A DNA stretch of 64,000 bases, taken from an uncultured virus (IMG/VR IMGVR_UViG_3300023109_001853). Lineage: Duplodnaviria; Heunggongvirae; Uroviricota; Caudoviricetes. Location of the stretch: IMG/VR virus record IMGVR_UViG_3300023109_001853; one strand, given 5' to 3'. The notes beneath the pieces are model-generated. The model saw only the letters and a program-made list of their open reading frames with translations. It was not told where the DNA came from and made no database searches. Each line of letters starts with the position of its first letter. The stretch's first letter is position 1. The translations under genes and the position numbers were made by a program. Positions 1-35,161 of this stretch are shown here, one piece after another.

Positions 1-90
1 GATCACGTTGAACTCTGCGTAACGGAACTCTTTTACTTTGGTGTAGTATGTATTAAACATTGAATGCCCTCTCTTTGTTAACTTATATAC

Positions 91-119
91 AGTATAGCAC
101 CACAATGCTATACTGTCAA
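91..119 (-). promoter_or_regulatory. sigma70-type early promoter
   Basis: Minus strand TTGACA-N17-TATACT with extended TG; drives an ORF starting at 60 that runs off the window. Confidence 0.85.
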
Positions 120-122
120 CCC

Positions 123-260
123 CTAATTTACTTTGTATGCATAGTAATCCTCTATAAACTCTGCACAGTCATCTGCGTTCTCTAGCTCACCAATCGCCTC
201 TAGCTGCGTGTAAGCACGATTAAGAAAGTAGTACGTAATACGATTGAGAATGTTTTGCAT
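123..260 (-). CDS. small early hypothetical protein
   Basis: ATG at 260 after AGAGGGC RBS and its own promoter (294-322). Confidence 0.7.
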   Translation of the reverse strand: MQNILNRITYYFLNRAYTQLEAIGELENADDCAEFIEDYYAYKVN

Positions 261-293
261 TGTTTGCCCTCTATGCATTTTTATTGTGTGTAC

Positions 294-322
294 ACTATAG
301 CACAAGTGCGCTATAGTGTCAA
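294..322 (-). promoter_or_regulatory. sigma70-type early promoter
   Basis: TTGACA-N17-TATAGT. Confidence 0.85.
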
Positions 323-329
323 CCTTTTT

Positions 330-521
330 TTATGCTGCTGTTACACACTCCTGCAGCTCTTCTATTATTGCATCCGCATTTAAAAGCAAGTTATTGTAAT
401 CCATTACTTTTTTTCCGTTTGCGTGTGTAAGTGCTTCCACTTGTTCCAGTATAAAAAATAATGCGCTTGCTTGTTGCAGTGCAGCTATAATTGTGTGTTG
501 TGTGTTTGTTTGTGTTTGCAT
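330..521 (-). CDS. small early hypothetical protein
   Basis: 63 aa ORF, GGAGGGC RBS, own promoter at 558-586. Confidence 0.7.
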   Translation of the reverse strand: MQTQTNTQHTIIAALQQASALFFILEQVEALTHANGKKVMDYNNLLLNADAIIEELQECVTAA

Positions 522-557
522 TTAAAGCCCTCCAAATGCGTGTTTAAGTTATAATTT

Positions 558-586
558 AATATAGCACAAGCAGCGCACTTTGTCAA
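558..586 (-). promoter_or_regulatory. sigma70-type early promoter
   Basis: TTGACA-N17-TATATT. Confidence 0.8.
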
Positions 587-614
587 GTACTAAATGCGCT
601 GCTGTGCAAGTTTT

Positions 615-863
615 TTATAGTGCGTCTAGCGCAGCGTCTATAATATTATGCGCACTTGCGTCACTAGCAAAGCCCTCTTCTTCTGCAAAGTCTATGCTGC
701 TGCTACACATAATAGTGTCTGTAAGCACATTAACGTTGTGTGTTAAAAACACTTCTACAAGTGCGTCTGCAGTTTGCACGTCTGTTGCGACAACTGTGTT
801 GTTAACAGTTACAACAATTGCAGCGTCTGCTGCTGCTAAAAATACGTAGTTTGTGTTTTGCAT
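615..863 (-). CDS. small acidic early hypothetical protein
   Basis: 82 aa ORF, GAGGAG RBS, own promoter at 901-929. Confidence 0.75.
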   Translation of the reverse strand: MQNTNYVFLAAADAAIVVTVNNTVVATDVQTADALVEVFLTHNVNVLTDTIMCSSSIDFAEEEGFASDASAHNIIDAALDAL

Positions 864-900
864 AATGTGCTCCTCATATGCTTGTTTAACTTATACATAC

Positions 901-929
901 AATATAGCACAAGTATGCACAGTTGTAAA
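901..929 (-). promoter_or_regulatory. sigma70-type early promoter
   Basis: TTTACA-N17-TATATT. Confidence 0.7.
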
Positions 930-1016
930 GAGAAAAATGCACTGCTAACCTATTGAAAACATTGACAAATCAATCTTTTATTTGTGTTTAAAAACAATGA
1001 CTTAGCCGAAAGAACT

Positions 1017-1214
1017 CTAACGAGCAGAGAAAGTCACACGCTGCTCTCTGTACATTTCTTTTAGCATGCTGAGATGCTGCTTTACGTATTCGTCAAACGT
1101 GTAGGGCTGCTGCTGACCAACAGCAAAGTACTCGTCACGGTTAGCATAGTACTGATTGGTGACAAATGCTCTAAACCGTCGGGGCCTATTGGTGAATGTG
1201 TGTGAATGGCTCAT
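1017..1214 (-). CDS. hypothetical protein
   Basis: ATG at 1214 preceded by GGTGGAG. Confidence 0.6.
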   Translation of the reverse strand: MSHSHTFTNRPRRFRAFVTNQYYANRDEYFAVGQQQPYTFDEYVKQHLSMLKEMYREQRVTFSAR

Positions 1215-1289
1215 TTGTTCTCCACCTTGTTCTCTTTTACACAGGCGTAACGCATGGTCACGCATCCATAGCACGTACACTGTTCCATT

Positions 1290-1631
1290 CTACATACTCC
1301 AATAAGATTCGCTTGCGGGGCTTAGGTAGCCAGGTGTGTTTACAGTTTCTGTGATCGGACGTTCTTTTGCCTCGTCCATGATGCTGTATACTGTACGCTT
1401 CTTTTCGATAAACGTATGAAACATTTCCGCTTCTGCAATACCATAACGGTATAGCGGATCATTCACGCTGTCCAACATGTCTGCTCTGTGTCGTTTGCTC
1501 ATACGTGTCAGCGCCGCCTTAGCTGCACCCATTGTCTTGTAGAATTTGTTATGGTCTGGACGAACGGTACCGTCCCACTTGTTGATCCCACCCATAATGT
1601 ATGTTGATGAACGTTCGTAGATATAAAACAT
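1290..1631 (-). CDS. early hypothetical protein
   Basis: ATG at 1631 with AGAGGGC RBS; promoter at 1662-1689. Confidence 0.75.
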   Translation of the reverse strand: MFYIYERSSTYIMGGINKWDGTVRPDHNKFYKTMGAAKAALTRMSKRHRADMLDSVNDPLYRYGIAEAEMFHTFIEKKRTVYSIMDEAKERPITETVNTPGYLSPASESYWSM

Positions 1632-1661
1632 TGTATGCCCTCTTTGTTTAACTATACATAC

Positions 1662-1689
1662 AGTATAGCATCTATTGCACACTTGTCAA
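1662..1689 (-). promoter_or_regulatory. sigma70-type early promoter
   Basis: TTGACA-N16-TATACT, same leader as the 91-119 promoter. Confidence 0.75.
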
Positions 1690-1699
1690 CCATTTTTTT

Positions 1700-2750
1700 G
1701 CAGCACCAGCTTCTCCGCCAGACCGAGCAGCGGGGCCTATTAGTGTGTCGAATGAACCTGCCCCTCTAACCTCTTGATAGTATAGAGGTTCTCTACCAAA
1801 GGCACCAAATGACGAACAACTTCCCTCAGAGGGATACACTATACACAAACTCCTTGTTCTAAGCCATTGATGTATATACACTATACAAAAACTCAATACT
1901 ATCAAAAGGTTACACTGTATACTATACACTATAACTCTATAGTAGCGCAGCGTAAGACTATACACTATACACTATAATAGAAAAGGCTAAGTCATTGATA
2001 TCATTGGACATTCACTGTTGTATAGTGTATAGTCGAGTGTACACATGGAGTACAGTCTAAGAACCGGTTCAGAACCGTACACAGACAATGATCCACCACT
2101 GGTGTGTGCGTATAGTGTATACACACACGTATATACATGACCAAGCAGCGGGGCCTATTGTGATCTACACTGTGAGAGACCGTGAATCTACTGTGAAAAC
2201 CACAATAGGAATGGTGAATATGGTGGACTATGGTCTAGAATAGTGCGAAATATTGGTGATTCGGTGTGAATAAACCATTGATTTCTTTACACTTTGGTGT
2301 ACAATAATAGCAGGTTTTTATACACCATCTCGCGGTGACGAGAGGCATAGTTCAAATACTTTTCGTACATTTATCTACCCTTTGTGTACGTGCAAAAACC
2401 CAGCATAATCCTACACCACAGCAGCGGGGCCTATACTATACACTATACTATACACTGTGCTCTACACTTGCTGCTACTCTCTTTATAGTGTGTAGTGTGC
2501 GCTCATCGAGCGTGTTCTTGTATAGTGTATTCTCTATAGTGTCTATAGTGCGTAGTTCGAGTATGGTTATTATAGTGTATAGTTCTAGTTTACACACGCA
2601 CGTATGTGTATGATCAAGCAGCGGGGCCTTTCTGCTTTAACAGTTGTTCGTAATAGTGTAAGTGTTGATCTATACGTATACGTTCATGATAGTCGTGTGT
2701 AGTACGTAATCTTTTTGTATAGTATTGTATACGACTGAGTATAGTTTTTT
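1700..2750. repeat. non-coding repeat-rich tract (candidate origin or genome end)
   Basis: Four AGCAGCGGGGCCT copies (1726, 2144, 2420, 2617), arrays of CACTATA/TATAGTG, IHF-consensus sites, no credible ORF. Confidence 0.75.
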
Positions 2751-2753
2751 TAG

Positions 2754-3854
2754 TCATAGGTTTGCTAGTATAGTGTATAGTTCAGGGAATGTACTAGCAA
2801 ATGTTTCGTTGCGTATACTGTCTAACTGTTGTGTTAGTTCTACGAAGCGTTTATAGCTGCGTGTGTTAGCTGTAGAGCCTAGCATATAGTTGCGTATACT
2901 GTCATCTATTATGTGTGTGCCTATTTCGTCTTTGCAGTGCTCAGGAATGTTTTTTATGCTGTAGTGTTCAGGTCCATGCAGTAGATTCCAGTAGGGTTTT
3001 ATGTTGTACTTGCATGCCCAGTCCGCAAACTCTTGCATGTATAGTACATTAAACTTGTTTACAGTATAGCACAGTGTGGTGTGTGTGACGTTCTCGTTGT
3101 ATATAGTTTCAAATGTTTGCTGTGCAGTAGCCCATTTCGCGGGGTGACGTTGGTATTCAAACTTTGAATCTATGCCGTCGAATGAGAACATAGTTTCTAC
3201 CCATTTAAACTCACGCCATAGGTTGCGTTGTGCTGTGGTGGGCAACACAGTTCCGTTGGTGTTGTAGTGTACGCTTATATTTTTGCTGTAGTTGTTGTCC
3301 ACAAGGTATTTGAGCAGTTGCCAGTGAGGTTTAACTAGGAATGGTTCGCCGCCTGTGAAGTCTATGAACTCTATACTAGGTGCTATATCTTTTAGATTGT
3401 CCCAAAATTCACTGTCATCATCTAGCCAGTTCAGCTTGGTGGGGAAGCGAGGTGCACCGTATATCTGTGTTTCGTCTTGTGCCCACTTTTGGCTGTATTC
3501 TGTTGAGCAGATTCTACACTTGATGTTGCAGATGCTGCCCAGTTTGAGATCCAAGTACACGGGTGCATCCAGTGTGGTCAAGGGTTCATGGTGTGCAAAA
3601 CGACGATTGTCGTTGATGCGCTTTGATGTGTAGCCGGCTGCTTCAGCACGCCAACAGTTTTCACAGCCCTGAGGTTGTACACCCGCACGGAAACTGTTGC
3701 GCAACTGCTGCATGCTATCTCCGTGCCATATTTCATCTAGACTTTGTGTGTTGAAGTTGCCCACTGCAGGCCCTTCCCACATACAACAAGGACGAGCTTC
3801 GCCCACAGTTGTTGTTTCTAGATGTATAAACGGTAGTATACAGGGTGTGCTCAT
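2754..3854 (-). CDS. radical SAM protein with N-terminal SPASM/twitch-like Cys domain
   Basis: CNIKCRIC motif, FTGGEP, YNTNGT; N-terminal C..PCC..CENC. Confidence 0.9.
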   Translation of the reverse strand: MSTPCILPFIHLETTTVGEARPCCMWEGPAVGNFNTQSLDEIWHGDSMQQLRNSFRAGVQPQGCENCWRAEAAGYTSKRINDNRRFAHHEPLTTLDAPVYLDLKLGSICNIKCRICSTEYSQKWAQDETQIYGAPRFPTKLNWLDDDSEFWDNLKDIAPSIEFIDFTGGEPFLVKPHWQLLKYLVDNNYSKNISVHYNTNGTVLPTTAQRNLWREFKWVETMFSFDGIDSKFEYQRHPAKWATAQQTFETIYNENVTHTTLCYTVNKFNVLYMQEFADWACKYNIKPYWNLLHGPEHYSIKNIPEHCKDEIGTHIIDDSIRNYMLGSTANTRSYKRFVELTQQLDSIRNETFASTFPELYTILANL

Positions 3855-4450
3855 TTAAAATACTCCTCGGCTATTCGTTGATGTGCAGTTGCGTTTACAT
3901 GATAGTAACTGTCTGCATAGTATCCTTCTCCCAGCCAATCCAACACGCTAGCACTGGGCAGTAGGGGTTCTAGGCTAGGATGTATAGGTATAGTATAGCG
4001 TGGCAACCAATCGTAAAACTCAATTGCACATGCATGCGAGTGTGCGTATGCTCTAAGTTCAACTATGCGTTGTGCTAGATTTTCTGTGCGCCAGTTGCTC
4101 ATAACATGATGCTCGTATATCCATTTGATATGATTGCTGTCTTGAACATAGTCTGCTATAGTGTAGTGATCAAAGTCATTTTTGTCAGTCCAAGGTCTAT
4201 TTTGTGCAAAGTTGTGGGTGTTACTGGTATTAAGAGTTATCCTGTCCCATGATGTTATTTGGAAAAGAATGTGTGTAGCGCCTTGATCCACAGCACGGTG
4301 CGCACACCATAGACTGTATTCAATGTCTGTGCCAGGCTTAGCCCAGTTAGCATATCCCATAAGTTCAGGGTATGCTTGTTCAGGTTCTACTCCTACTGCT
4401 GATGTATAAGAACACCCTACAGCTACTTGTTTACAGTTTGTTTGCATCAC
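3851..4450 (-). CDS. SGNH/GDSL-like hydrolase family protein
   Basis: AVGCSYT block I, NWAKPG block II, DSYYH near C-terminus. Confidence 0.6.
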   Translation of the reverse strand: MMQTNCKQVAVGCSYTSAVGVEPEQAYPELMGYANWAKPGTDIEYSLWCAHRAVDQGATHILFQITSWDRITLNTSNTHNFAQNRPWTDKNDFDHYTIADYVQDSNHIKWIYEHHVMSNWRTENLAQRIVELRAYAHSHACAIEFYDWLPRYTIPIHPSLEPLLPSASVLDWLGEGYYADSYYHVNATAHQRIAEEYFK

Positions 4451-4580
4451 ATATTTACATGTGATCTAGAGGCGACCGAGCCAATGTGAACAGTCGTCAC
4501 ACGGATCGTCACACCATTGAAATTTAAAATATTCTTCGTCGAACAAAGTCATAGTGTACTTATCTAAGAAGTGTTGATTT

Positions 4581-4856
4581 TTACTCTAAAACTTCCTGCC
4601 ATTCAACATCGTCGATGTCCCAACAGTCATCCCAACTTACTATAAAACTTAGTCTACTATCGGTATCTTCTAGCTCTACTAAACGTTGTTCTAGATCACG
4701 TTTTTTAATTACACCTAGTCCTTCGTATTTGCCTGCACGATTAGGATCGGCGCCTGTTATTGGACTTGCAGGACTTCCACTCTCATCGAGAACAGTTGTT
4801 ACACGAAAGCGACATGCATAACTTTTGCCTGTTTCTATTTCGGTCATTTCGTACAT
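4581..4856 (-). CDS. hypothetical protein
   Basis: 91 aa ORF with GGAG RBS. Confidence 0.65.
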   Translation of the reverse strand: MYEMTEIETGKSYACRFRVTTVLDESGSPASPITGADPNRAGKYEGLGVIKKRDLEQRLVELEDTDSRLSFIVSWDDCWDIDDVEWQEVLE

Positions 4857-4859
4857 TTA

Positions 4860-5501
4860 TTATTTCTCCATTTTAGTATCTAGTTTTTCAAATAATTTGC
4901 GACAGGCACTCATTAATCCTGTTTGTTTACTTACATTTACTTTCACAAACTTCTTTGCTTTTCTGTTTACATAGTGACGGGTTCCATTATGTAGTATTAA
5001 GATTCCGCCCCAGTTTTTTAAATTCTCGTGTGCCCACTGTTCGGGCATGTCTAACCAATGGTTCCCAGTAGGAGCATAACCTCCGTGACTCCATTCGAAA
5101 AGTTCTTGGTTAATGTAAAAATCATCTTTTCCGTTATAGTCGAACTGTTTTTGATCAAGATATGTTACATTGCGGATACCTTCTAGTCTATGATTCCATT
5201 CAATGCCAATACTTAATATACGAGAAGGTAACCAAGGATTATCACCTCTAATACTTCTACCAATCCATCTATTAGTGCCAGGATGCAATTCAACATCGCC
5301 GTCTTGATATTGTGTTATTGTTAGAGGATCGTTGATCTCATTCTTATAAAAGTAAAACCACATAGGTAAACAATCAATGTAGCCTCGGCGAGGAACTCTA
5401 CGGGTTAACATTTTTTCCATATGTAACTCGTTTGATTGCCTAAATGCTAGGTGTGGTATGCTAACTTGTAATTCGCAAGAGTATTGATATATAGTCTTCA
5501 T
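4860..5501 (-). CDS. hypothetical protein
   Basis: 213 aa ORF just downstream of a TTGACA promoter (5532-5537). Confidence 0.7.
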   Translation of the reverse strand: MKTIYQYSCELQVSIPHLAFRQSNELHMEKMLTRRVPRRGYIDCLPMWFYFYKNEINDPLTITQYQDGDVELHPGTNRWIGRSIRGDNPWLPSRILSIGIEWNHRLEGIRNVTYLDQKQFDYNGKDDFYINQELFEWSHGGYAPTGNHWLDMPEQWAHENLKNWGGILILHNGTRHYVNRKAKKFVKVNVSKQTGLMSACRKLFEKLDTKMEK

Positions 5502-5584
5502 TTATACAGTATATAGCCTTTTAGTTTTATTGTCAACTGTAAAATTAGTCATAAATATCTGTATCAAAAAGAGGAGTTTCCCTA

Positions 5585-5809
5585 ATGAGCAAGAGTACAC
5601 TAAAACATATTAGCCTAAATTTAGAACTAGGTCAAACTATATTAGTCGGACCTAACAAGAAGCCTGCAGAAATTACTAAAATTGAATTCCATGAAAAAAG
5701 TGGGGAAATAACTCTAAACACTACAGAAGGTCCTAGAAAAGCACTTACATTTGCATTATGCGAGCAGGATGACGAAGACTACGAAAATCCTGCTGACCGT
5801 TATCGATAA
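5585..5809 (+). CDS. hypothetical late protein
   Basis: TAAATA promoter at 5552 and GAGGAG RBS. Confidence 0.75.
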   Translation: MSKSTLKHISLNLELGQTILVGPNKKPAEITKIEFHEKSGEITLNTTEGPRKALTFALCEQDDEDYENPADRYR

Positions 5810-5822
5810 GATAAATATTATC

Positions 5823-6068
5823 ATGAGAGTAGATGAAGTATTAACAGATGACGAACAACTAGACGATTGGCGTGCTAGTAAGGAATTGTGCTTAGGCGAT
5901 AAGCCTGACAGTGCTATTGGTGCCAGTGCTCTTTCCAGTTGTAAAAGCCAAGGTTATCGAAACCGTAAAGGAAACAAGAGTCACAAAATCGGTAAGCGTC
6001 GAGTTAAAGTTGGCGGCAAAAAGATTCGTGGCAAAAAATACGGCGGCCCATTGCCGGATTGGAGTTAA
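5823..6068 (+). CDS. small basic late protein
   Basis: ATG 5 nt after TAAATA; K/R/G-rich C-terminus. Confidence 0.7.
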   Translation: MRVDEVLTDDEQLDDWRASKELCLGDKPDSAIGASALSSCKSQGYRNRKGNKSHKIGKRRVKVGGKKIRGKKYGGPLPDWS

Positions 6069-9469: not shown

Positions 9470-10375
9470 TTAAATAGACTTAACTGGTATAACTGGATTA
9501 AGATGTGTTTCGTTAGCAAAAAGCATATCTTTACTTACATCGCCATATAACACACCTTTGATGTTACACTTGTTACAAGGATGACATCCGCGACCATTAG
9601 CAAGTTCTTGTCTAAACTTCCACAGCTTTTGACTCTTGAGCCAAATATCTTGTACACTAGTGTCCATGACATTTCCCATGACTTGTTTCTTTTCCCAATC
9701 ATGTGAACAAAGCAGTACATCGCCATCCCAGTGTAAGCTCATTGCATAAAACGGAATATTACATCCTAGTTCTGGTAACTTTTCGTTGAAAAGATATCCT
9801 GCTCTGTTACTTAGATATAAAAACCCGTAGTTTTCTTCTGGTGGCTTGTAATAATGTTGTAGAATAAATTGTTCTTCAGTTAATCCTACTTTAGCAAAAA
9901 GTTCTCTAAAATGATCTTCTTGTTCAGGACCTGAATACATCGATACGAAAAGTTTATTCAAACCTGCGTCAAGTAATTCTACAGTTTTGTCATACGTAAG
10001 TCTGTCACCGTTAGTGACCATATGAATATTATCATTCCACGGCAAATGTTTTTTAAACAATTTTATACTTTCGGTAAGATCCTTGTATAATAAACTTTCG
10101 CCAAACCCGCAATACAGTAATCTATTTTGATAATGACTATTAGCTAAGTCTCTGCCTACCTTGTCAACTATCTTTAGATCCATATGCAAGTTTAAATTTG
10201 GATAGCCGTGTGCTCTTGGACAAAACTCGCAAGTTAAATTACATAGTTCTGTAGCCATTACGTCTATTAACATCAGCGAACTAAACGGATCATCTTTGCT
10301 CATCCTATCTTCCATAGGATCGTACATTGATTCTCTGTCTTTAGCAATATAATTTGTACTTTTCATCTCTGGCAT
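9470..10375 (-). CDS. radical SAM/SPASM domain protein
   Basis: CNLTCEFC, GFGE, VTNG; C-terminal CNIPF..GDVLLC..GN..CNKC. Confidence 0.9.
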   Translation of the reverse strand: MPEMKSTNYIAKDRESMYDPMEDRMSKDDPFSSLMLIDVMATELCNLTCEFCPRAHGYPNLNLHMDLKIVDKVGRDLANSHYQNRLLYCGFGESLLYKDLTESIKLFKKHLPWNDNIHMVTNGDRLTYDKTVELLDAGLNKLFVSMYSGPEQEDHFRELFAKVGLTEEQFILQHYYKPPEENYGFLYLSNRAGYLFNEKLPELGCNIPFYAMSLHWDGDVLLCSHDWEKKQVMGNVMDTSVQDIWLKSQKLWKFRQELANGRGCHPCNKCNIKGVLYGDVSKDMLFANETHLNPVIPVKSI

Positions 10376-14420: not shown

Positions 14421-14636
14421 TCAACCGCCTGGAACAAATTCTTTTGGAGTATACCATACTTTTTGATGATGTATACGTCCTAGCAGTTCTTGTATCTCGT
14501 GCATTTCTTCTTTTAGCTTTTCAGATACATCGCCTTGAGCAATGGCCATTCCTCTACGGCCAGCCTTTGCTCTTAGTGCTGATTCAATAACTTCAATGTC
14601 TCTTACAGTCAATTCAAAGTTTTTGTTAGGTTTCAT
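14421..14636 (-). CDS. hypothetical protein
   Basis: Start overlaps the stop of the pseudoazurin gene. Confidence 0.65.
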   Translation of the reverse strand: MKPNKNFELTVRDIEVIESALRAKAGRRGMAIAQGDVSEKLKEEMHEIQELLGRIHHQKVWYTPKEFVPGG

Positions 14637-15064
14637 AGTTCGCCTAGCAATGCTTTCAATTTTTTCTTTGACTTGCCTTTTACTTTAGCGTCTTTGATAG
14701 CGTCAACACCTTCTTGTGTTAGCTCGCCTACAACTACAATAGCAATCATGCCCGTGCTCTTGTGTGGTGTACATTGGTACAAGTATACGCCTGGCTCGTC
14801 AAATGTATATGTGTATTCTTTTGATAGTTTTGATTTCTTAGGTGCGTCCCAACCATCTGGTCCTGCAATGAATTCTACATTGTGACCCTTCTGTGTTGGT
14901 TCCCAAGTAATTGTATCGCCTACGTCAATACGTGCAATGTCTTGACTGTAAACCATTTTGGCTCCGTCATCACGTTTGTTTAACATTTCGATAGTTGTGT
15001 CTGCGGCAAACGCAGGAGTAGATAGTGCAACCATGACGGCTACTGTAGATAGTAAATTCTTCAT
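14633..15064 (-). CDS. pseudoazurin-like blue copper protein
   Basis: Signal peptide; IEMLNK..GAKMVY..VGDTITW..GHNV; YQCTPH..GM copper ligands. Confidence 0.92.
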   Translation of the reverse strand: MKNLLSTVAVMVALSTPAFAADTTIEMLNKRDDGAKMVYSQDIARIDVGDTITWEPTQKGHNVEFIAGPDGWDAPKKSKLSKEYTYTFDEPGVYLYQCTPHKSTGMIAIVVVGELTQEGVDAIKDAKVKGKSKKKLKALLGEL

Positions 15065-16420: not shown

Positions 16421-16537
16421 CCGTAATCATCATTTGACACGCTTGTAATAGATGCTACAATAAATAATCAGTAGGCAACGTCGAGCCTACCTTTAACGTG
16501 AGCGCCGTGGTAAAAACGGCAAGCAGAGGAGAAACTA

Positions 16538-17497
16538 ATGGACGCACTCACCTTATGGAGCCTAGTCGGGTTCCTATTCGCAGCATACGCTGTGATAGCA
16601 AATGATTCAGTACAAACTCTCGGTACATGGATGGCATCAAACAATGAGAGATTTACTTATAAGACGTTATGGATTGCGGCATCCGCTGTCCTATTAGCCA
16701 CACTATGGTATGGCTGGAGTGTAAATGGTGGAGACATCAGTTACGGCAGACTAAACAAGATTCCATGGCAAGAGGTACAATGGTATCATGCTATGGCACC
16801 GGGCGTACTTGTTATACTAACACGTATGGGAGTTCCGGTATCTACATCCTTTTTAGTGTTAAGTGCTTTCGCAAGTACGTTTGTGCTAGAAAAGATGTTG
16901 ATGAAATCCATAATGGGTTACGGCATTGCAGCAATGTTTGCATACTTTGCTTGGTACTTTATTAGTAGAGTAATGGACGAAACAGCACCAGTCAAAGAAC
17001 AACACAAGGACTATTGGCGCATAGCACAATGGGTAGCAACAGGAGGCTTGTGGTGGACTTGGTTGTCACATGATATGGCTAACATCGCTGTATTCCTTCC
17101 ACGTGAAGTTCCACTGGACTTGATGTTCTTAGTCAGTGTAGTATTTGTAGTTGGCTTGTTCTTTATGTTTAGAGAACGAGGCGGCAAGATACAAAACATT
17201 GTACTAGAAAAGCACAACACAAGATATGTGCGTAGTGCGACACTAATTGATTTATTCTATTGGTTGTGTTTGTACTTCTTCAAAGAGCTGAACGATATAC
17301 CTATGTCAACTACTTGGGTGTTCGTTGGTATGCTTGCAGGACGTGAACTTGCTATTGCAAGCTTCACAGGTAAGATGAAGTTTAAGAGCGTGTTTCCTTT
17401 GGTAGCACGAGACTTCCAAAAGATGATGATAGGCTTAGGTGCATCAGTAGCTATTGTGCTAATGATTCATTATGTATTAGTACCAAACGGTTATTAA
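16538..17497 (+). CDS. multi-pass membrane protein, PiT/PHO4-like permease
   Basis: About 10 TM helices; ANDSVQT / HDMANIA and PVSTS / PMSTT internal-repeat motifs. Confidence 0.65.
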   Translation: MDALTLWSLVGFLFAAYAVIANDSVQTLGTWMASNNERFTYKTLWIAASAVLLATLWYGWSVNGGDISYGRLNKIPWQEVQWYHAMAPGVLVILTRMGVPVSTSFLVLSAFASTFVLEKMLMKSIMGYGIAAMFAYFAWYFISRVMDETAPVKEQHKDYWRIAQWVATGGLWWTWLSHDMANIAVFLPREVPLDLMFLVSVVFVVGLFFMFRERGGKIQNIVLEKHNTRYVRSATLIDLFYWLCLYFFKELNDIPMSTTWVFVGMLAGRELAIASFTGKMKFKSVFPLVARDFQKMMIGLGASVAIVLMIHYVLVPNGY

Positions 17498-17501
17498 TTT
17501 G

Positions 17502-17533
17502 GAAAGGTTGTGTTCGACGGCACAACCTTTTCT
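17502..17533 (+). terminator. intrinsic terminator
   Basis: AAAGGTTGTG..CACAACCTTT stem followed by T residues. Confidence 0.75.
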
Positions 17534-17589
17534 CTTGACATACAGCTCGATGAATGTATAATTACAAGTATAGCAGCACAGGACCACTC

Positions 17590-18327
17590 ATGAAAATATT
17601 AATTGCAGGATACGGGTTTGTTGGTAAAGCTCACTACGAAGTTTTAAAATTTAAACATGAAGTTTTTATTAACGATCCTCAGTTAGGATACACTAACTCC
17701 TACGATGATGCTGACGCAGTTATTGTTTGTGTAGCAACTCCGCCTAGACAAGATGGCAGTTGTCATATGGACAATGTGTTTAATGTTATCGAAGCAGCAC
17801 CGGATGTACCTATTCTAATTAAAAGTACAATTAGTGTAGAAGGCTGGGATATGTTAGTAGATGCATTTCCTAATAGACAGATAGCGTTTTCGCCAGAGTT
17901 CCTACGTGCAGCAACAGCAGTAGAAGACTTGCAGAACATGGATTTAATGTTGATAGGAGGCAACTCCTGCGGCTTCTGGCGTGATGTGTTTGGTGTTAAT
18001 GTAGAAGTTGCAGAGCCAGAAGAACTTATTCTAGCCAAATATGCTCGCAACAGTTTCCTTGCACTTAAAGTTGCGTTCTTTAATCAGATGTATGATTTGT
18101 GCGATGCATTGGATGTTGAGTATTCAGCCGTTGCACACTATACAACAATGGACGAACGCATCGGCGACAGTCATAGTTTTATATCGGACGAGCGTGGCTT
18201 TGGCGGACACTGTTTTCCTAAAGATACATCGGCATTAGTTAAAACTGCACAAAGAAATAACGTTGAATTATCAATACTAGAACAAGCAATTAACTATAAC
18301 AGTAACATAAGAAAGGGAACTAATTGA
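17590..18327 (+). CDS. ugd: UDP-glucose/GDP-mannose dehydrogenase family (short phage form)
   Basis: [44 protein letters not shown]. Confidence 0.88.
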
Positions 18328-19259
18328 AAATGAAAATCATCGCAGGTAACGCTAACCCAGTGTTAGCACAGGAGATTGCAGACAACACCTTTGCAACTCT
18401 AGTACCATCTAAAGTAGCAACATTTGCAGACGGAGAAATAAGTGTAGAGTTTTTAGATAACATTCGCGGAGAAGATGTATTCATTATTCAATCAACTGCT
18501 ACTCCAGTTAACGATAGTTTAATGGAATTGTTGATTATGATTGATGCTGCCAAACGTTCAAGTGCTAGTAGAATCACAGCAGTCATTCCTTACTTTGGGT
18601 ATGCTAGGCAGGACCGTAAGAGCGCCAGTAGGACACCTATTACAGCAAAACTAATTGCAGACTTGCTTACTACAGCAGGCGCAGATAGAGTGCTTACAAT
18701 GGACTTACACGCAGGACAGATACAAGGGTTCTTTAATATTCCAGTTGATGACTTAACAAGCCGTTTGGTGTTTGCCAAAGACATTAAACGCAATATAGGT
18801 GCAGAAGACACAGTATTTGTAAGCCCAGACGCAGGCGGCGTTGTTCGTGCTAGGAAGTTTGCAGACATGTTCCATGCAGACATTGCTATAGTAGATAAGA
18901 TGCGTCCAGAAGCGGGCAAGTCAGAAGTCATGAACTTGATCGGCGATGTTAAAGGCAAACACGCCATTCTAGTTGATGATATTATTGACAGCGGCGGTAC
19001 ACTATGCAACGCAGCCAAAGCTATTATGGATGCAGGTGCTCTAAGTGTTCGTGCATATATCACACATGGTGTACTGAGTGGCGAAGCATGTCAGAAAGTT
19101 GAGAAGAGTGTACTCACAGAACTGGTAATCACTGACAGCATTGCAGACCGTTGTCCTAAGAACTGCAAAAAGACACGACAGGTTAGTGTCGCGACTTTGT
19201 TTGGTGAAGCAATTCGTCGAGTAACTAATGAAGAGTCAGTTAGTAGTTTATTCTTTTAG
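18324..19259 (+). CDS. prs: ribose-phosphate pyrophosphokinase
   Basis: [44 protein letters not shown]. Confidence 0.97.
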
Positions 19260-20017
19260 TTTAGTTTACTGATGTGCTTAATGTATTCAACCATTGAATG
19301 ATCTGAGAAGTTATCAATCTTACCTTGCTTGATACCCATCCACATGCCACGCATTTTATCTTTAAACATCTGCCAGCCAGTAGGCTTACGAAGGTTACCA
19401 TATGCATTTAAGTAATGCTGATTACCGCAGTGTCTAAAGCCCATAAGTGCTAGAGGAACAGTTGTAACTATATCGTTGTTGTTCTTCCATCTGTGATGTA
19501 CAGTGCCAAAGCTCTTGACATATGTTGGCCAACCTACTCTCGGTGAACCATATGTGTATAGTTCCTCTGGATTGTTTAGTGCTGTATCGCACTCGCAACG
19601 ATTGGCCATTATAGTTGCCATTGCTGCACCTAAACTATGTCCGCATATCCATAGCTTCTTGCCTACATTAGCTGTACGTGCAATATCTTCGCACACCATA
19701 GGCCAAAGTTCGTCTACTTCGTCTTTGAATCCTTTGTGTACTCTACTAATTGTTTCAGCAATAACAGGCAAAGCATTTAGATCTGCTTTGATATCATTAA
19801 ACTCTGTTGGTTGTGTTCCACGACACGCAATTACCAAGTCTTCTTTGTTCATAAAGCGGTATGCTTGTGCGCCGTCTCTGTTATAGAACTCAACAGTTGT
19901 GAATCCTAATTTTTTTACTTGACTTTTAACCTCTTTGACATTATCATTATACGCAATACTAGACAGTTTAGCAAATAATAATGAACGCTCAGGAAAAGAC
20001 ATTTTTGTTATAGACAT
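19256..20017 (-). CDS. class 3 lipase (alpha/beta hydrolase)
   Basis: [30 protein letters not shown]. Confidence 0.92.
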
Positions 20018-20096
20018 GTTTGCCCCCTAGTGTGTTGCCTCATTGTACACGTATTTATAGTTTACATAAACTAAATACATTAACGGAGTTGGTTAA

Positions 20097-20357
20097 ATGA
20101 AAAAACGTACTAGAAGTATACTAGAAGAGCTTAACAATTTAGATAGATCCAGAAATAATGACCTTTTAATCGAGTCAACTGGTAGTACTATTATAGAAAG
20201 TGCAATTAATTTACTTAATAAGATATCTAATACCTATGATGCTGAAACTGCTGGAGAACTTGAAAGACGCTTTATTAACTCAATTAGAACTGGCGATCCT
20301 AGAAAATTTAAAAGAAGTATAAACAAAGTGATTGGGAATAAAAATAATGACGAATAA
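20097..20357 (+). CDS. hypothetical late protein
   Basis: TAAATA at 20072 and GGAG RBS. Confidence 0.75.
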   Translation: MKKRTRSILEELNNLDRSRNNDLLIESTGSTIIESAINLLNKISNTYDAETAGELERRFINSIRTGDPRKFKRSINKVIGNKNNDE

Positions 20358-21270
20358 ACTATTTGAAGGCGGAAGCATGCCAGGAGTAGGACCTATTCAT
20401 ATTGATGAGATTAATCCTACGCTTGATGCACTAGAAAAAGCATTAGGCATTGACCTAAAGAATAATGTACTTGGGTCAGTTGGCAAAAAAGAGTTTAGTG
20501 GCGACATTGATGTTGCTATACAAGTAGCGCCTGATGCAATACCAGAACTAGTTAAGAAGATTGAAGCAACACCTTTGGTACTTGACATTGCTAAGTCAAG
20601 TGTTATTATGACAAAGGTAAAGATTGTTAATTACGATCAAAACAAACAAGCAACTAAACCTCGTACAGGATTTGTACAAGTAGACTTTATGCCAGGCGAT
20701 CCGGGCTGGATGAAAACTTATTATCATTCACCTAGTGATACAGAATCACAATACAAAGGTGTGTTTCGTAACTTGATGCTTGCAACTATGTGTGCTGTAT
20801 ATCAGCGTCAAGATAGTGAAGAACAAATTGAAGACGGCCGCCCAGTTGAAAGCGAACGCTGGATGTGGAGCCCTACAGATGGCCTAGTACGTGTCAAACG
20901 TACACCTGTAGCAAAGAAGAACGGCGAAGGTTATACAAAGAAAAACAATAACGAAATAATTGGCACACCAATCAAAGATGCTAACGGCATTGCAAAAGGA
21001 CTAGGACTAGACAGTGCCGCAGACTTAAACAGTTATGAAAGTTTAAAAGCTGCAATGGAAAAGAATTACACACCTGAAGATGTAAACAGAATACTAGATA
21101 GTTTTGTTAAAAACAGACAAGTACAGGATATTGGAATACCAAAAGACATTGCTGACAGAGCTCCTGCTCAAACAGAGAGTTTAGCAGACAAGCAATTGGA
21201 TAGAATTAGACAATTGTCTGGATCATTGTTAAATAGTTCTGTAATGATTTCCGGAGCGTTTAATAAATGA
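20347..21270 (+). CDS. Pol beta-like nucleotidyltransferase fold protein (putative virion internal)
   Basis: LGSVGKKEFSGDIDV and VQVDFM acidic triad. Confidence 0.65.
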   Translation: MTNKLFEGGSMPGVGPIHIDEINPTLDALEKALGIDLKNNVLGSVGKKEFSGDIDVAIQVAPDAIPELVKKIEATPLVLDIAKSSVIMTKVKIVNYDQNKQATKPRTGFVQVDFMPGDPGWMKTYYHSPSDTESQYKGVFRNLMLATMCAVYQRQDSEEQIEDGRPVESERWMWSPTDGLVRVKRTPVAKKNGEGYTKKNNNEIIGTPIKDANGIAKGLGLDSAADLNSYESLKAAMEKNYTPEDVNRILDSFVKNRQVQDIGIPKDIADRAPAQTESLADKQLDRIRQLSGSLLNSSVMISGAFNK

Positions 21271-22526
21271 AATTTAATGAATTTAAAATAGTAGAAACTA
21301 GGCGTAAGCAAAAGAATGCCGATAAAGTACGTGGTAAAGAACCTATGCCTAAGGCACAGCCTGGCCGTACTGAACACCCATTCCGTGGTAGATTAGTAGG
21401 CGAAAGTCAATTAAACGAAGCTGAAGCACGTATCCAACATGCAGAAGATATTATCTTTTGGGAAGGATCAAAGGGTGCTGTCCGTGCTATTGAAAGTTTA
21501 AAGAGTTTAGAGCAAGGCAAACATACAGATGTAACAATTAAATGGGACGGAAGTCCTGCTGTTATATTTGGACGTGACGAGCAGGGTAACTTTGTACTAA
21601 CAGACAAGTCAGGGTTTGGCGCTAAAGGTTATAACGGTAAATCAACAAGTGCTAACGACTTAGAACAGATGTTAATGAATCGTCCTGGATATAAAAAGAA
21701 TCCAGAAGGATATGGACCGTTCATTAATAATATGAAAAACATCTTTGACGAGTATGAAAGAGCAACACCAAAAGACTACAGAGGATTCTTTAAAGGAGAT
21801 TTGCTTTATTTTAATACGCCTGAGATAGAAGACGGTCGATATCATTTTACTCCAAACATAGTAACATATGATGTAAAGGTTGACAGCGAAATAGGTAAGA
21901 AAATCGCAGCAAGTAAAACAGGTATTGTTATACATAGAGAAGTAGATGCTAATGGTACCGAAGGTACGCTACAAAATGGAGATATATTTTTAGGTAATGA
22001 AGTATTAGTTCTTCCGCCAGTAGTGGCACAGCAAGCCCCGCAAGTCAACGACAATGATATTAAAACGCTGCAAGCTATGGTAGCAAAGCATGCTGCACAA
22101 ATAGACGACATACTTACAAGACGTCCAGGATTGTCTGACTTACCAACTATTTTTTATACATATTTGAATAGTAAAGTTGACACAGGTATAAAAGACTTAG
22201 CACAAGGTTTTAGCATCTGGCTTGCACAATCAAAAGTAAGTAAACCAAAGCAACAAAAAATTATTGAAATTATAAACAATAATGTTGATGGTTTTAATGC
22301 GTTATGGAATGTTGTACACGGCATTATGAAAGTAAAAGATAACATTATTAATCAATTTGAATCACAAGAAGCTGATATTACAGCAAGTATAGGATCTAAA
22401 GGACCGGCTGCACAAGGCACACACGGTACTGGCGGTGAAGGATATGTACTAGCACATCCAGAAGGTGATATAAAATTAGTACCGAGAGAATTTTTTACAA
22501 AAGCAAACAGATCAGTGGAGAGATAA
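21267..22526 (+). CDS. ATP-dependent ligase-like protein (putative virion internal)
   Basis: TIKWDGSPA (KxDG), FKGDLL, GEGYV, IKLV motifs. Confidence 0.6.
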   Translation: MKFNEFKIVETRRKQKNADKVRGKEPMPKAQPGRTEHPFRGRLVGESQLNEAEARIQHAEDIIFWEGSKGAVRAIESLKSLEQGKHTDVTIKWDGSPAVIFGRDEQGNFVLTDKSGFGAKGYNGKSTSANDLEQMLMNRPGYKKNPEGYGPFINNMKNIFDEYERATPKDYRGFFKGDLLYFNTPEIEDGRYHFTPNIVTYDVKVDSEIGKKIAASKTGIVIHREVDANGTEGTLQNGDIFLGNEVLVLPPVVAQQAPQVNDNDIKTLQAMVAKHAAQIDDILTRRPGLSDLPTIFYTYLNSKVDTGIKDLAQGFSIWLAQSKVSKPKQQKIIEIINNNVDGFNALWNVVHGIMKVKDNIINQFESQEADITASIGSKGPAAQGTHGTGGEGYVLAHPEGDIKLVPREFFTKANRSVER

Positions 22527-22527
22527 A

Positions 22528-22959
22528 ATGGAAAAGTATTTAAAAGAGTTTGAAGATCATCTAAATAATATTACAAAAGATGTTTTAGATGAAGGAATGG
22601 AATCAACGCCGATTCAAAAAAAATTAGCTGCGTATGGTAGAATCTTAATGGATCAAGCAGTTACTACAAAAGATGACGAGTTATCAAATGTTATGGCTAA
22701 AGTAGGTGACGCACTTACACGCTTTGGTACAACATTTGGTCCTGGTAGTCTTGAAGAGCTAGTGAAGACAACAGGAACAACTCCTAATGTTATTAAAAAG
22801 TTATTAGCATATGCAGAAAAGATTTTCCAAACACATGGAGATTTAAAAACTGACAACCGTGATGGTGGACTAGACGACGAAGGCGACGATGATTTTACCC
22901 AAGCATCTGATGATGAAATGGCAGCAATAGCAGACAAAGCAGCAAGAGCAAGAAGATAA
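22528..22959 (+). CDS. hypothetical late protein
   Basis: GGAG RBS, in operon. Confidence 0.75.
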   Translation: MEKYLKEFEDHLNNITKDVLDEGMESTPIQKKLAAYGRILMDQAVTTKDDELSNVMAKVGDALTRFGTTFGPGSLEELVKTTGTTPNVIKKLLAYAEKIFQTHGDLKTDNRDGGLDDEGDDDFTQASDDEMAAIADKAARARR

Positions 22960-22962
22960 TTA

Positions 22963-23316
22963 ATGGACTTTATTAAAGCTATTGTTAACGATCAAGATAT
23001 TTTAACAGATCGAGAATTTGATGAACTTATTGAAAGTTTAGATCTAGAAAAAATTGACGAAGATGCTCTTGATCGCGTAACTAAATTAGTTTCGCAGAGA
23101 GAAATAGCACTTTATAGTTATCTTGTCGGTAAGCAAAATGCATTAAAAGCAAAGATATTTGTAGACAAAGTACAAGACGGAAGAACAGTGCCTGTTAACA
23201 TAGCAAATGGATACAAGCCGGCAGTTGATATGATACATGATATTGTAAAAGCTGGCCCTGCTTATGTCAATTTACTGAAAAATTTGCATCAGAGAGCCAA
23301 AAAAGCCTCTAAATAG
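22963..23316 (+). CDS. hypothetical late protein
   Basis: 117 aa ORF in operon. Confidence 0.7.
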   Translation: MDFIKAIVNDQDILTDREFDELIESLDLEKIDEDALDRVTKLVSQREIALYSYLVGKQNALKAKIFVDKVQDGRTVPVNIANGYKPAVDMIHDIVKAGPAYVNLLKNLHQRAKKASK

Positions 23317-23401
23317 CAGTTTTTTTGTCTAAGAGGTAAATACAAATGTAGAACTTTGCAGAGTGCAAAGTGTCCATTTAGAGATCATAGGAGAATATAA
23401 A

Positions 23402-23653
23402 ATGGCAGTAGTATCAAACCCAAACGCAGCAGTAGTTGCAAAGAGTGGCCTAGGCCCAACAACATACATCTATGCAGTAGCAACTGGAACAATTACAGTA
23501 GCAGCAGCATGTGAATCAATCACAACAACATACGGCGGAACAATCGCAGCAGTTGAAGGTGTAGCAAACGGCAACCACGTTGCAGTACAAGGTGGACCAG
23601 GCGGCGCAGAAGCAGTATCTGGTATTTCACTAGTAGCAACATTTGCAGCTTAA
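23402..23653 (+). CDS. small, probably highly expressed structural protein
   Basis: TAAATA promoter, AGGAG RBS, strong GCA/GTA/ACA codon bias, A/G/T/V rich. Confidence 0.8.
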   Translation: MAVVSNPNAAVVAKSGLGPTTYIYAVATGTITVAAACESITTTYGGTIAAVEGVANGNHVAVQGGPGGAEAVSGISLVATFAA

Positions 23654-23711
23654 ATAATTCCTTACTACCTTAGGAACCGTGATTATGGCCGTAATGGCAG
23701 GCGTCACACTA

Positions 23712-23741
23712 AAGAGTCACTTTTTAAGTGGCTCTTTTTTT
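23712..23741 (+). terminator. intrinsic terminator
   Basis: AAGAGTCACTT..AAGTGGCTCTT then T run. Confidence 0.85.
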
Positions 23742-23757
23742 ATGACTTAAATACTGT

Positions 23758-24150
23758 ATGATATTTAAAGCACATACACTAGTAGATATAACACAAACAG
23801 AAGCCCGTCGACATGAAGCTCCGAGGCTAGTAAATCAACAGGCAAACTTTAATACCTTTTATAATACAATAGGTCTTAGAACTAACGCTGTAGATTTTAA
23901 AATTACAGTTGAGAACGTTTTGATTGCTGATTTAGGGTTTGGCAGTAATTATAAAGGCAAACAAAACGTATGGACCACAGAATTTTATGTAGAAGCAGAA
24001 GGGTCAACTTCTGTAGAATTACTAGACGCTGACTTTGATTTAGTACCTATTATAACTAACTTAGACGAAACAGCAAAGCTTGACAAAGGGTTGTTTATCA
24101 CTCTTTCGAATCATGGCCGTAGGAATATATTTTTTGAAAGAGTTAGATAA
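23758..24150 (+). CDS. hypothetical late protein
   Basis: ATG 4 nt after TAAATA. Confidence 0.75.
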   Translation: MIFKAHTLVDITQTEARRHEAPRLVNQQANFNTFYNTIGLRTNAVDFKITVENVLIADLGFGSNYKGKQNVWTTEFYVEAEGSTSVELLDADFDLVPIITNLDETAKLDKGLFITLSNHGRRNIFFERVR

Positions 24151-24229
24151 ATACACTGAAGGCAATTAATAATAGGCATATAAACCACACCAAAAGGCTA
24201 ACGAACGAGTTTACTTACGGAGAAATTAT

Positions 24230-24469
24230 ATGGCTACTACGCCAACATCAAACTTAGAAAAAGAAAATCTAGAAGCACACGTAGATTTGTGCGCTCTTCG
24301 TTACGAACAACTAGATCAGCGTCTTACTAATGTTGAAGAAAAAATTGACAATATCCACAGCGATATTGTAGAAGGTCAAAAATCGATGACCAAAGTACTA
24401 ATTGGTACCGCAGGAACAGTAATCGCAGGATTACTTTCTACAGTAATCGTAATTGTATTACAAATGTAA
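24230..24469 (+). CDS. coiled-coil protein with C-terminal TM helix (holin/XhlA-like)
   Basis: Heptad repeat followed by one hydrophobic helix. Confidence 0.55.
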   Translation: MATTPTSNLEKENLEAHVDLCALRYEQLDQRLTNVEEKIDNIHSDIVEGQKSMTKVLIGTAGTVIAGLLSTVIVIVLQM

Positions 24470-24490
24470 CTTTTCTCGATAAATAACTAT

Positions 24491-24775
24491 ATGTTATTAC
24501 GAGAATTTTTTAAAACCGATAAAATAGAAGAAAAACAAGTTTGGGCACGTTCTGGAAAGAAGGTTGTGCGCAAGTATCGTTGTACCTCTGGTAAACGAAA
24601 AGGCAGAGTAGTTGCTAAGATGCAACAATGCTTTGCTGCTCCTAATCTAAAGAAAAGCAAAACACTAAAAGTAACTAAAGCTAGATTAGGTCCGCGCCTT
24701 GCAAGAAAAGCTAAGAGAACTAAGCGTATTAATCCAGCTAGTAAAAGAATCCAGCAACTGAACAAAAGAGGATAA
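24491..24775 (+). CDS. very basic late protein (putative DNA-binding core protein)
   Basis: MLLREFF..IEE N-terminus then K/R-rich sequence. Confidence 0.7.
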   Translation: MLLREFFKTDKIEEKQVWARSGKKVVRKYRCTSGKRKGRVVAKMQQCFAAPNLKKSKTLKVTKARLGPRLARKAKRTKRINPASKRIQQLNKRG

Positions 24776-24777
24776 TT

Positions 24778-25017
24778 ATGAAAGTTAATGAAGTAACCAC
24801 TGCAAAAGTAAAACGCAACTCAGGTAACGAAATTGAGATTGATAATGGCGACGGTACAGCTACTACAATTGATACTCGAAAAAATCCTAATGCAGTTTCG
24901 CGAGACGAACAAGGCAAACTAAAAATTAATAAAAACAACAACAACAGTTCTATGAACAGGAATAAGTCGACCGCGCCTAGAGCCGGTGAAACAGTTGCTA
25001 TAGCAGATGAAGATTAA
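24778..25017 (+). CDS. hypothetical late protein
   Basis: GAGGA RBS. Confidence 0.7.
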   Translation: MKVNEVTTAKVKRNSGNEIEIDNGDGTATTIDTRKNPNAVSRDEQGKLKINKNNNNSSMNRNKSTAPRAGETVAIADED

Positions 25018-25628: not shown

Positions 25629-25667
25629 ATAATAGCATAAAACACAAATACATCAGGAAGAGTTGTA

Positions 25668-26998: not shown

Positions 26999-27058
26999 TA
27001 TAACAGTTGACAAGGCTCCTATTTAATGTTATTATATACATTAATAGGAGCTTTTTTT

Positions 27059-28107: not shown

Positions 28108-28138
28108 ATACATGTAATAAAACTTAGGAGATTCCGCA

Positions 28139-30441: not shown

Positions 30442-30473
30442 ATATTCAACTATTAAACAAAAAGGACGTAAGA

Positions 30474-35148: not shown

Positions 35149-35161
35149 GAAAAACAAAAAA

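Follow-up and report, generated by a model that had tools for sequence, protein, structure and literature searches.

We analysed a 64,000-nucleotide (nt) stretch of DNA from the uncultured virus IMGVR_UViG_3300023109_001853, hereafter the window, with all positions given on its + strand. Close to its first letter lies an island of small early genes (62-929, minus strand) whose message strand contains almost no cytosine preceded by a pyrimidine. We write YC for such a step (TC or CC) and GR for GA or GG; a GR on one strand is a YC on the other. Because the island genes lie on the minus strand, the absence of GA and GG from the + strand means that the message strand, which is the minus strand of the window, is without C after a pyrimidine. 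As seen in the window, the island has 157 C on its message strand and only 6 YC, five of these in 218-248.

The early-gene island and its missing dinucleotides

Read in the direction of transcription, the island opens with an early promoter at 901-929 (TTTACA, 17 nt, TATATT, with a TG extended -10; this and all features below are on the minus strand). The ban on YC begins exactly at the -35 hexamer of this promoter, and a TCTC lies just upstream, at 930-933. Next comes a gene for an acidic protein of 82 amino acids (aa), which we call family A (615-863; 51 C and 1 YC, the latter in a GTC codon at 789-790). Its Shine-Dalgarno (SD) sequence is GAGGAG at 870-875, and 13 of its 14 GA/GG steps fall within Asp, Glu or Gly codons. 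A second promoter (558-586; TTGACA, 17 nt, TATATT, TG) is followed by a gene for a 63-aa protein (330-521; 37 C, 0 YC; SD sequence GGAGGG at 527-533), and a third (294-322; TTGACA, 17 nt, TATAGT, TG), placed within a 10-bp inverted repeat (292-319), by a gene for a 45-aa protein (123-260). The first 45 nt of this third gene contain 5 TC and the remainder none, and the gene looks like a mosaic edge of the island. A fourth promoter (91-119; TTGACA, 17 nt, TATACT, TG) drives the next gene, which starts at 60, and the ban stops at that start codon. In contrast, two neighbouring early genes (1290-1631 and 1017-1214, in the segment 1017-1689) have a promoter of the same type at 1662-1689 and use YC normally (25 of 73 C and 19 of 50 C). 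The five promoters score 10-11 out of 12, each with a TG extended -10. The island is thus an array of self-contained early-gene cassettes, each with a near-consensus sigma-70 promoter, a strong SD sequence and a small, mostly very acidic protein.

RNA-library contigs (4 runs from 3 studies) cover 1-1000 and 1200-1700 of the window; these contigs show neither ends nor levels, and the lack of coverage over 1700-3000 counts as no evidence. They contain two joints, 910>310 and 119>626, which fit cassette shuffling. Rfam gave no family and ARAGORN no tRNA.

The depletion itself can be read from simple counts. The + strand of 250-929 holds 168 A, 134 C, 128 G and 250 T, and the 128 G are followed by C 60 times, by T 67 times, by A once (at 789) and never by G. 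This recount agrees with the preliminary description of the DNA, which had been made from its letters alone and had given one purine-followed G in about 128. Within 1-1000, GA or GG occurs on the + strand only at 1, 10, 24, 25, 40, 62, 218, 224, 242, 246, 248, 789, 930, 932, 955, 964 and 999. The same description had named 64-217 as a second free segment, and we find 63-217 to be without GA/GG, while a purine follows 46.6% of G across the whole window. Three stretches free of GA/GG, of 541, 156 and 141 nt, exceed all others in the 64 kb, the next being 129 nt. With a purine after 1 of 128 G, the message strand of the two small early genes and their spacers is almost without TC and CC: the four spacers have 45 C and 1 YC, and the 82-aa and 63-aa proteins have no Pro, as had been noted. 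The view that 250-929 covers the early genes holds for the genes at 615-863 and 330-521 and only partly for that at 123-260, where the 5 TC (218-248) lie.

From base composition, 55.7 YC would be expected on the message strand of 250-929, and 1 is seen (binomial log10 P of about -29.8). When codon order was shuffled, the 82-aa and 63-aa genes had on average 5.4 and 4.0 YC, compared with 1 and 0 seen, and the fraction of shuffles at or below the observed value was 0.0006 and 0.0042. Synonymous resampling from the phage's own codon usage gave 9.8 and 6.9. The depletion therefore exceeds what base, amino-acid and codon composition would give. Among variant letters inside 63-929 (n = 20), 2 create GA/GG as they occur and 4.5 were expected, numbers too small to count.

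Searches of Pfam and PHROGs returned nothing for the island proteins at the usual thresholds, apart from one PHROG hit at E 0.007. The structural model of the 82-aa protein is confident (pLDDT 94.3) and had no match in the PDB by Foldseek at E <= 0.001; with VIA-align its best Z was 6.6, to the TolR periplasmic domain, followed by RNase-H-like beta-beta-beta-alpha-beta-alpha cores. As modelled, this is a common arrangement that suggests no function for family A. The family forms 617 clusters in public metagenomes. Pairs of its genes differ at 14-45% of codons for the same amino acid and share 68-92% amino-acid identity; the alignment has 90 columns, of which 38 vary in amino acid and another 27 show synonymous variation only, a pattern that points to fast evolution at the protein level. 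Across the family, 10-13 of 11-14 GA/GG fall within Asp, Glu or Gly codons. RNAalifold found 3 compensatory pairs among 56 in family A, and no evidence for the surviving YC sitting in stems. No relatives of the 63-aa protein were found in viral contigs.

Related phages and selection at the nucleotide level

The window itself had no nucleotide match in the phage collection (queries 1-6000, 30000-42000 and 1-3000), and one contig, G001, overlaps it only within 16457-36456. Protein matches lead to marine T4-like myoviruses; a CHASE2-cyclase, for example, shares 54% identity with its counterpart in Methylophilales phage Melnitz and 34% with the one in Pelagibacter phage HTVC008M. Other window genes include RNR, GroES/GroEL, curli genes, heme oxygenase and bilin reductase. 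Two related viral contigs, G002 (275 kb, rated 77% complete) and G003 (257 kb, 72%), indicate by size and completeness a giant genome. G002 is syntenic with the window and has a T4-type terminase, a gp15-like sheath stabiliser, a family-B polymerase and further T4-like functions. By these comparisons, the window is that of a marine T4-like giant phage. The preliminary description had likened the block to the first-injected DNA of T5; a T4-type large terminase, as in G002, suggests headful packaging with no fixed genome end. The host is probably not a cyanobacterium, for which we have a weak hint: Photo_RC had no match in the four related contigs, and the phage PRPP synthetase is nearest to Alphaproteobacteria (62% identity), with no cyanobacteria among its best 80 hits.

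A search of viral contigs with family A gave 11 loci, seven of them close (77-89% identity). The seven related contigs show the same ban over 0.4-3.2 kb, often in message-strand YC-free blocks larger than that of the window. They include 2925-4641 (1,717 nt, 312 C and 3 YC in one cluster), 4869-5570 and 5644-6099 in L006; 381-1844 and 3404-4169 in L003; 4728-5503 and 5649-6545 in L008; 4054-5302 in L005; and 356-1356 and 1462-2033 in L004. At least 10 small-protein families are encoded in these blocks. Most of the proteins begin with MQ, their genes each having a separate promoter and an SD sequence of the GAGGG type, and the gene order of the cassettes varies among relatives. In 3 of 8 genomes (the window, L002 and L007) the -35 hexamer is the exact point at which the ban sets in; in five other blocks it sets in 35-110 nt ahead of the first promoter. 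The tolerated TCTC recurs just 5' of the family-A -35 hexamer, as at 930-933 of the window, and in L005 it is preceded by a 14-bp hairpin (4876-4909). The protein family does not demand the ban: at the four remaining loci, in other phages, a 37%-identical homologue has 20 YC among 46 C. Both YC-rich and YC-poor versions exist within the same island protein families.

The ban sits at one locus per genome. In G002, YC-free gaps longer than 200 nt occur only at 219,725-222,900 (next longest 195 nt), and in G003 the long gaps are at 380-1844 and 3403-4169 (next longest 205 nt). Neither Melnitz (141.5 kb) nor T4 (168.9 kb) has a YC-free gap longer than 153 nt or a GA/GG-free gap longer than 146 nt. 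Among the 336 open reading frames (ORFs) of G002 and 275 of G003, all 10 with YC in fewer than 0.10 of C are in the island. Five ORFs of the two contigs have GR at fewer than 0.15 of G: three are island genes, one is an antisense shadow within the island and the last, a marginal case (3 of 21), lies elsewhere.

We then pooled 26 island genes (2,347 codons; 7,119 nt) and 25 flanking genes from 8 genomes; the pooled genes are homologous and therefore not independent. YC totals were 11 in the island and 525 in the flanking genes, divided by codon position of the C (first, that is across the boundary, second and third) as 2, 3 and 6 compared with 184, 156 and 185. The proteins contain 3 Pro in the island and 84 in the flanks. 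All 106 Ser codons of the island genes are AGY, compared with 72 TCN and 56 AGY in the flanking genes, and Ile is never encoded by ATC (0 of 117, against 48 of 101). A codon starting with C follows one ending in a pyrimidine in 2 of 309 cases, compared with 184 of 412. Shuffling codon order gives 145.9 boundary YC where 2 are seen (z = -17).

Could the depletion be a by-product of base, amino-acid or codon composition? The island proteins are indeed unusual, being acidic (median isoelectric point 4.05, compared with 5.23 in the flanks) and rich in Ala, Thr and Gln. However, the codon-order and synonymous shuffles, the YC-free spacers and the occurrence of the same families in YC-rich and YC-free versions all speak against this, and we consider it scarcely credible. 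The eight family-A genes, moreover, differ by at least 139 changes, and 19-24% of random changes create a YC (26-33 expected), yet only 3 are seen. In all likelihood, then, the island is under a selected dinucleotide ban that acts at the nucleotide level.

The preliminary description had offered scarring by a deaminase that targets TC and CC as an alternative, in which repeated C-to-U deamination of one strand would have left the pattern as a mutational trace. The dinucleotide set is that of APOBEC/DddA-type deaminases, which would suit such a scar. However, the blocks (11,474 nt) keep much of their C (17.5%, compared with 20.8% in flanks), and AC plus GC rises to 17.2 per 100 nt from 13.2 in the flanks. 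TT plus CT is 13.05 per 100 nt compared with 12.02, whereas deaminating 7.5 YC per 100 nt would add about 7.5. Moreover, the YC of YC-rich homologues aligns with AG, GC, CA, TA, AA, TT or CT in the YC-poor ones, and among the replacements is Ser TCN to AGY, a switch that takes two or three changes. With C kept and T not gained, a scar is very improbable; evasion of a modifier directed at TC/CC, the other form of that alternative, may still apply.

Some further features of these genomes are recorded here. About 1 kb next to the early cluster (window 1683-2750) has no convincing ORF and is dense in repeats of TATAGTGTATAGT / ACTATACACTATA, found in either orientation (7 direct-repeat families and 24 inverted pairs). 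Exact 10-mer copies of GCAGCGGGGCCTAT lie at 1180, 1731, 2149 and 2425, with 0.02 expected by chance. This segment may be an origin or a regulatory region adjoining the early cluster. The sole YC clusters in two long YC-free blocks of relatives (L004 1155-1157; L006 4093-4095) lie within the same GGCCCCGCTG motif that is repeated in this non-coding region. Elsewhere, the window carries auxiliary genes for a plastocyanin-like copper protein (14633-15064), heme oxygenase and a ferredoxin-dependent bilin reductase (46015-47245), curli CsgF/CsgG with curlin-repeat proteins (49025-53583) and a CHASE2 adenylate/guanylate cyclase (54520-56556), the last common to the window phage, Melnitz and HTVC008M. 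Two SPASM radical-SAM genes are at 2754-3854 and 9470-10375; G002 has at least 13 radical-SAM genes in about 33 kb (L017 3064 to L018 16286), several with SPASM or B12-binding domains, and more elsewhere. Proteins with an Mtd_N domain (major tropism determinant N-terminal) are encoded at 28139-30019 of the window, there fused to a pectate-lyase-like beta-helix, and at L019 5289-6587 of G002.

Mirror-image cassettes and what may read the step

In the window, only cassettes of the YC-free kind occur. The islands of relatives, however, also hold five genes of two families whose message strand is almost without GA and GG: a purine follows 2-4 of 37-66 G, compared with a genome median of 0.54. These are L003_4140 (2 of 41 G; 17 YC), L006_4595 (3 of 43 G; 17 YC), L007_5337 (4 of 37 G; 6 YC), L006_5352 (2 of 66 G; 5 YC) and L008_5357 (2 of 62 G; 8 YC). 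GA/GG across their codon boundaries number 3, compared with 44.7 in shuffles (minimum 31 in 3,000), and their proteins contain no Gly or Trp, 0-2 Glu, 1-2 Asp and Arg encoded as CGY only. The two kinds adjoin in the same islands. Each cassette thus keeps one strand clean, and it can be either strand.

The second strand is also cleared in part. On the message strand of the YC-free genes, GA is disfavoured where coding permits a choice: G|A across codon boundaries occurs 25 times, compared with 101.4 in shuffles and 87.4 when the shuffles were held YC-free. TGA is seen 69 times where 157 are expected, and CGA 51 times where 101 are expected, while AGA, GGA and SD-like words are not depleted; the SD-like word GGAG occurs 30 times (18.8 expected). 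Mirror genes show the reciprocal effect, with 16 boundary YC compared with 54.9 in shuffles. In both kinds of cassette, then, the second strand is depleted two- to four-fold where coding leaves a choice.

These cassettes bear on every explanation by a factor that reads the message strand alone. The termination factor Rho is one. A messenger RNA (mRNA) without UC and CC could not load Rho, and the cassette array with its untranslated spacers would be transcribed full-length even without coupled translation. The specificity matches exactly, with 1 YC among 128 C in 250-929 and 11 YC in 7,119 nt of island genes. Excerpts of PMC5314796 describe a primary site of six clefts that each take one YC, and lowered termination upon single YC mutations; excerpts of PMC13323073 state that E. 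coli Rho reads up to six CC/UC and that coding-strand composition alone lets Bacillus genes escape it. In T4, according to part of PMC2988021, Rho separates immediate-early from delayed-early RNA, the immediate-early RNA being that made in Rho's presence. The island also keeps its C in AC and GC contexts, and its RNA is more stably folded than that of GC-matched flanks, by 3.5 kcal per 120 nt. The identity of the host matters here, as Rho is said in an excerpt of PMC11347177 to be absent from Cyanobacteriota; the probably non-cyanobacterial host of this phage would suit Rho. However, mirror cassettes have normal YC in their mRNA (17 of 61-62 C in two of them, and 5-17 YC over the five genes) and yet almost no GA/GG. 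Nor does Rho predict the avoidance of TGA and CGA on the message strand. Rho binds cooperatively, yet isolated YC are removed where the background is YC-free, and neighbouring early genes with the same type of promoter are unprotected. We therefore regard Rho as an unlikely cause. The idea of an unstructured mRNA, or of avoidance of anti-SD pairing, was rejected, as the island RNA is more folded and SD-like words are not avoided.

A second message-strand reader would be an enzyme for which one hit suffices. This could be an endoribonuclease that cuts at YC, or a C-directed enzyme (a deaminase, a DarT-like transferase or a dC-specific nuclease) that attacks the non-template strand when heavy transcription of early genes lays it open. 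Polynucleotide cytosine deaminases typically prefer TC/CC, and T4 endonuclease IV favours TCA in single-stranded DNA. Such an enzyme would fit the purging of each site individually, the start of the ban at the -35 hexamer in three genomes and the fact that TCR is the depleted form on the other strand. On the other hand, we know of no bacterial enzyme with combined UC and CC specificity, no RNase or toxin family turned up in the Pfam scan of G002, and the TNTC motif of DarT2-type enzymes, as given in part of PMC11543638, does not need the loss of CC. The mirror cassettes again speak against it: they bear YC on the message, non-template strand, and a one-hit enzyme seems quite unlikely to us. 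Message-strand-only readers, whether Rho, an RNase or an enzyme on the displaced non-template strand, fit the window and fail because of the mirror cassettes. A template-strand block to RNA polymerase was also considered and fails on the same cassettes.

Alternatively, these steps could be sites at which the phage modifies its DNA, for instance on the G of GA/GG, as do the 7-deazaguanine transglycosylases of phages CAjan and 9g. Immediate-early cassettes would then keep one strand unmodified for the unmodified host RNA polymerase. G002 does encode GTP cyclohydrolase I, a PTPS, at least 15 radical-SAM enzymes and sugar-nucleotide enzymes. However, TGT/DpdA (PF01702) and QueC (PF06508) were unmatched in all four related contigs, two of them 72-77% complete, although the contigs are incomplete and distant DpdA homologues could escape. 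Furthermore, the two classes of cassette would differ in which strand is modified, the template in one and the non-template strand in the other, and known modified phage DNAs are transcribed by host polymerase. We consider self-modification decidedly improbable.

It was the mirror cassettes that shifted our reading from a message-strand reader to one that works on DNA. Since cleaning either strand suffices, we infer that this reader needs the step on both strands, and that harm would arise only where TC/GA or CC/GG steps lie close together on both. The reader could recognise sites with dyad symmetry, or its hits or nicks could come in pairs, one on each strand. With one of its strands clean, a cassette would never be cut through and would stay transcribed, so that the first-responder proteins of the phage could be made. 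Candidate agents are restriction-type endonucleases with these steps in their palindromes, a YC-directed nickase, or a cytosine deaminase whose lesions are lethal only on both strands. A cost of this multiplicative, both-strand type would explain why the other strand is only partly cleared, and closely spaced hits on opposite strands (by a YC nickase, or a deaminase together with base excision) would explain why a total ban is needed. We know of no YC-directed nickase or deaminase that acts in this way. That clearing one strand removes every symmetric site needing these steps had been proposed in the preliminary description, and it is the only logic we found that also covers the mirror cassettes. 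We favour this both-strand logic as the reason for the ban, but tentatively, at somewhat less than an even chance.

Several observations weigh against it. For the window alone, every feature also fits a message-strand reader. The rest of the genome is unprotected (GATC in flanks, 81 seen and 76.2 expected), and the neighbouring early genes with same-type promoters use YC normally, which leaves island-only protection unexplained for a DNA-destroying agent unless the DNA enters in stages or the attack is confined to a certain time or place. Occasional single YC are tolerated: of the 60 family-A homologues fetched from the 617 clusters, 8 have one Pro, all at the same site, and 3 of the 8 family-A genes have a single YC. 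No nuclease, deaminase or modification enzyme of such specificity was found in the window or in G002. The Pfam scan of G002, which covered 250 of 261 ORFs of at least 100 aa (11 were lost at piece boundaries), gave no known RNase toxin, DNA deaminase toxin or DpdA; it did give two dCMP_cyt_deam_1 proteins, an SNase homologue, an HNH endonuclease and an Eco57I-type methylase. The two cytidine/dCMP deaminase-fold proteins lie at L023 17808-18125 and L021 10183-10608 of G002, one beside thymidylate synthase and DHFR and the other a short 105-aa ORF.

A total ban is also excessive for fixed palindromes, since by our count it removes 4 of 16 four-bp and 28 of 64 six-bp palindromes and enriches others. 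Under the ban, GATC, TCGA and CCGG are absent and GGCC occurs 3 times, while TGCA (5.0-fold), GCGC (2.6-fold), ACGT (2.1-fold) and GTAC (1.6-fold) exceed expectation, and 62-929 of the window retains 18 six-bp palindromic sites of 13 kinds. General restriction avoidance, as first suggested for this DNA, finds no support here, because palindromes without these steps are not avoided and GATC is at expectation in the flanks; as plain restriction avoidance, the logic of one clean strand is weak.

It is tempting to speculate that an enzyme new to science, of marine bacteria or of phage, attacks 5'-YC cytosines on DNA and kills only through both strands. Giant phages would answer with first-responder genes clean on one strand, at the cost of having no Pro (or no Asp, Glu and Gly) in the encoded proteins, and the acidic island proteins would include inhibitors. 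We regard this fuller scenario as possible but rather doubtful.

Significance and comparison with known systems

A literature search at the level of titles and abstracts found no description of such a ban in phages. Its near-absolute, two-letter form places it among the strongest nucleotide-level selection signals in a phage known to us: it has persisted through hundreds of substitutions and removes entire amino acids from the proteins. The ban marks, by exact specificity, a factor of the infected cell that reads this two-letter step, and it flags abundant unannotated early proteins as likely counter-defence genes. It also offers a simple sequence signature for spotting such islands in any phage genome.

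Phage genomes are known to avoid palindromic restriction sites, including in the site-poor first-entering DNA of T5 and T7. There, as here, selection removes short words from DNA that needs to survive and be expressed early, and small acidic early proteins adjoin. Unlike in those cases, a whole dinucleotide class is barred from one strand, and only locally, while other palindromes are enriched; the islands, moreover, are known here from contig fragments. The strand bias of EcoP15I sites in T7 is closer in logic. Type III enzymes need inversely oriented sites, so that immunity comes from having sites on one strand only, and either strand serves. However, the word here has two letters, and adjacent cassettes of opposite polarity would still yield long-range inverted pairs.

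Among systems that act on the message, avoidance of Rho through coding-strand composition ('purine bias' in the excerpts of PMC13323073; the YC clefts of Rho in those of PMC5314796) resembles the island in that Rho's exact ligands are depleted and composition serves as cis-encoded protection of the transcript. Known Rho avoidance is genome-wide and graded, however, whereas here the depletion is nearly absolute, occurs in a single island and comes with mirror cassettes, for which Rho offers no explanation. Likewise, mRNAs without ACA escape MazF, a message being immune by lacking the word of a nuclease. We know of no YC-specific RNase, and the mirror cassettes argue against a reading on mRNA only.

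The architecture, finally, recalls the promoter-early stem-loop (PeSL) cassettes of T4-like phages, which are small ORFs with their own early promoter within an inverted repeat, shuffled among relatives. Although PeSL describes cassette architecture and mobility and no dinucleotide ban, the likeness extends to the inverted repeat at 292-319 of the window, the 14-bp hairpin of L005, the two joints in the RNA-library contigs and the variable gene order of the islands.

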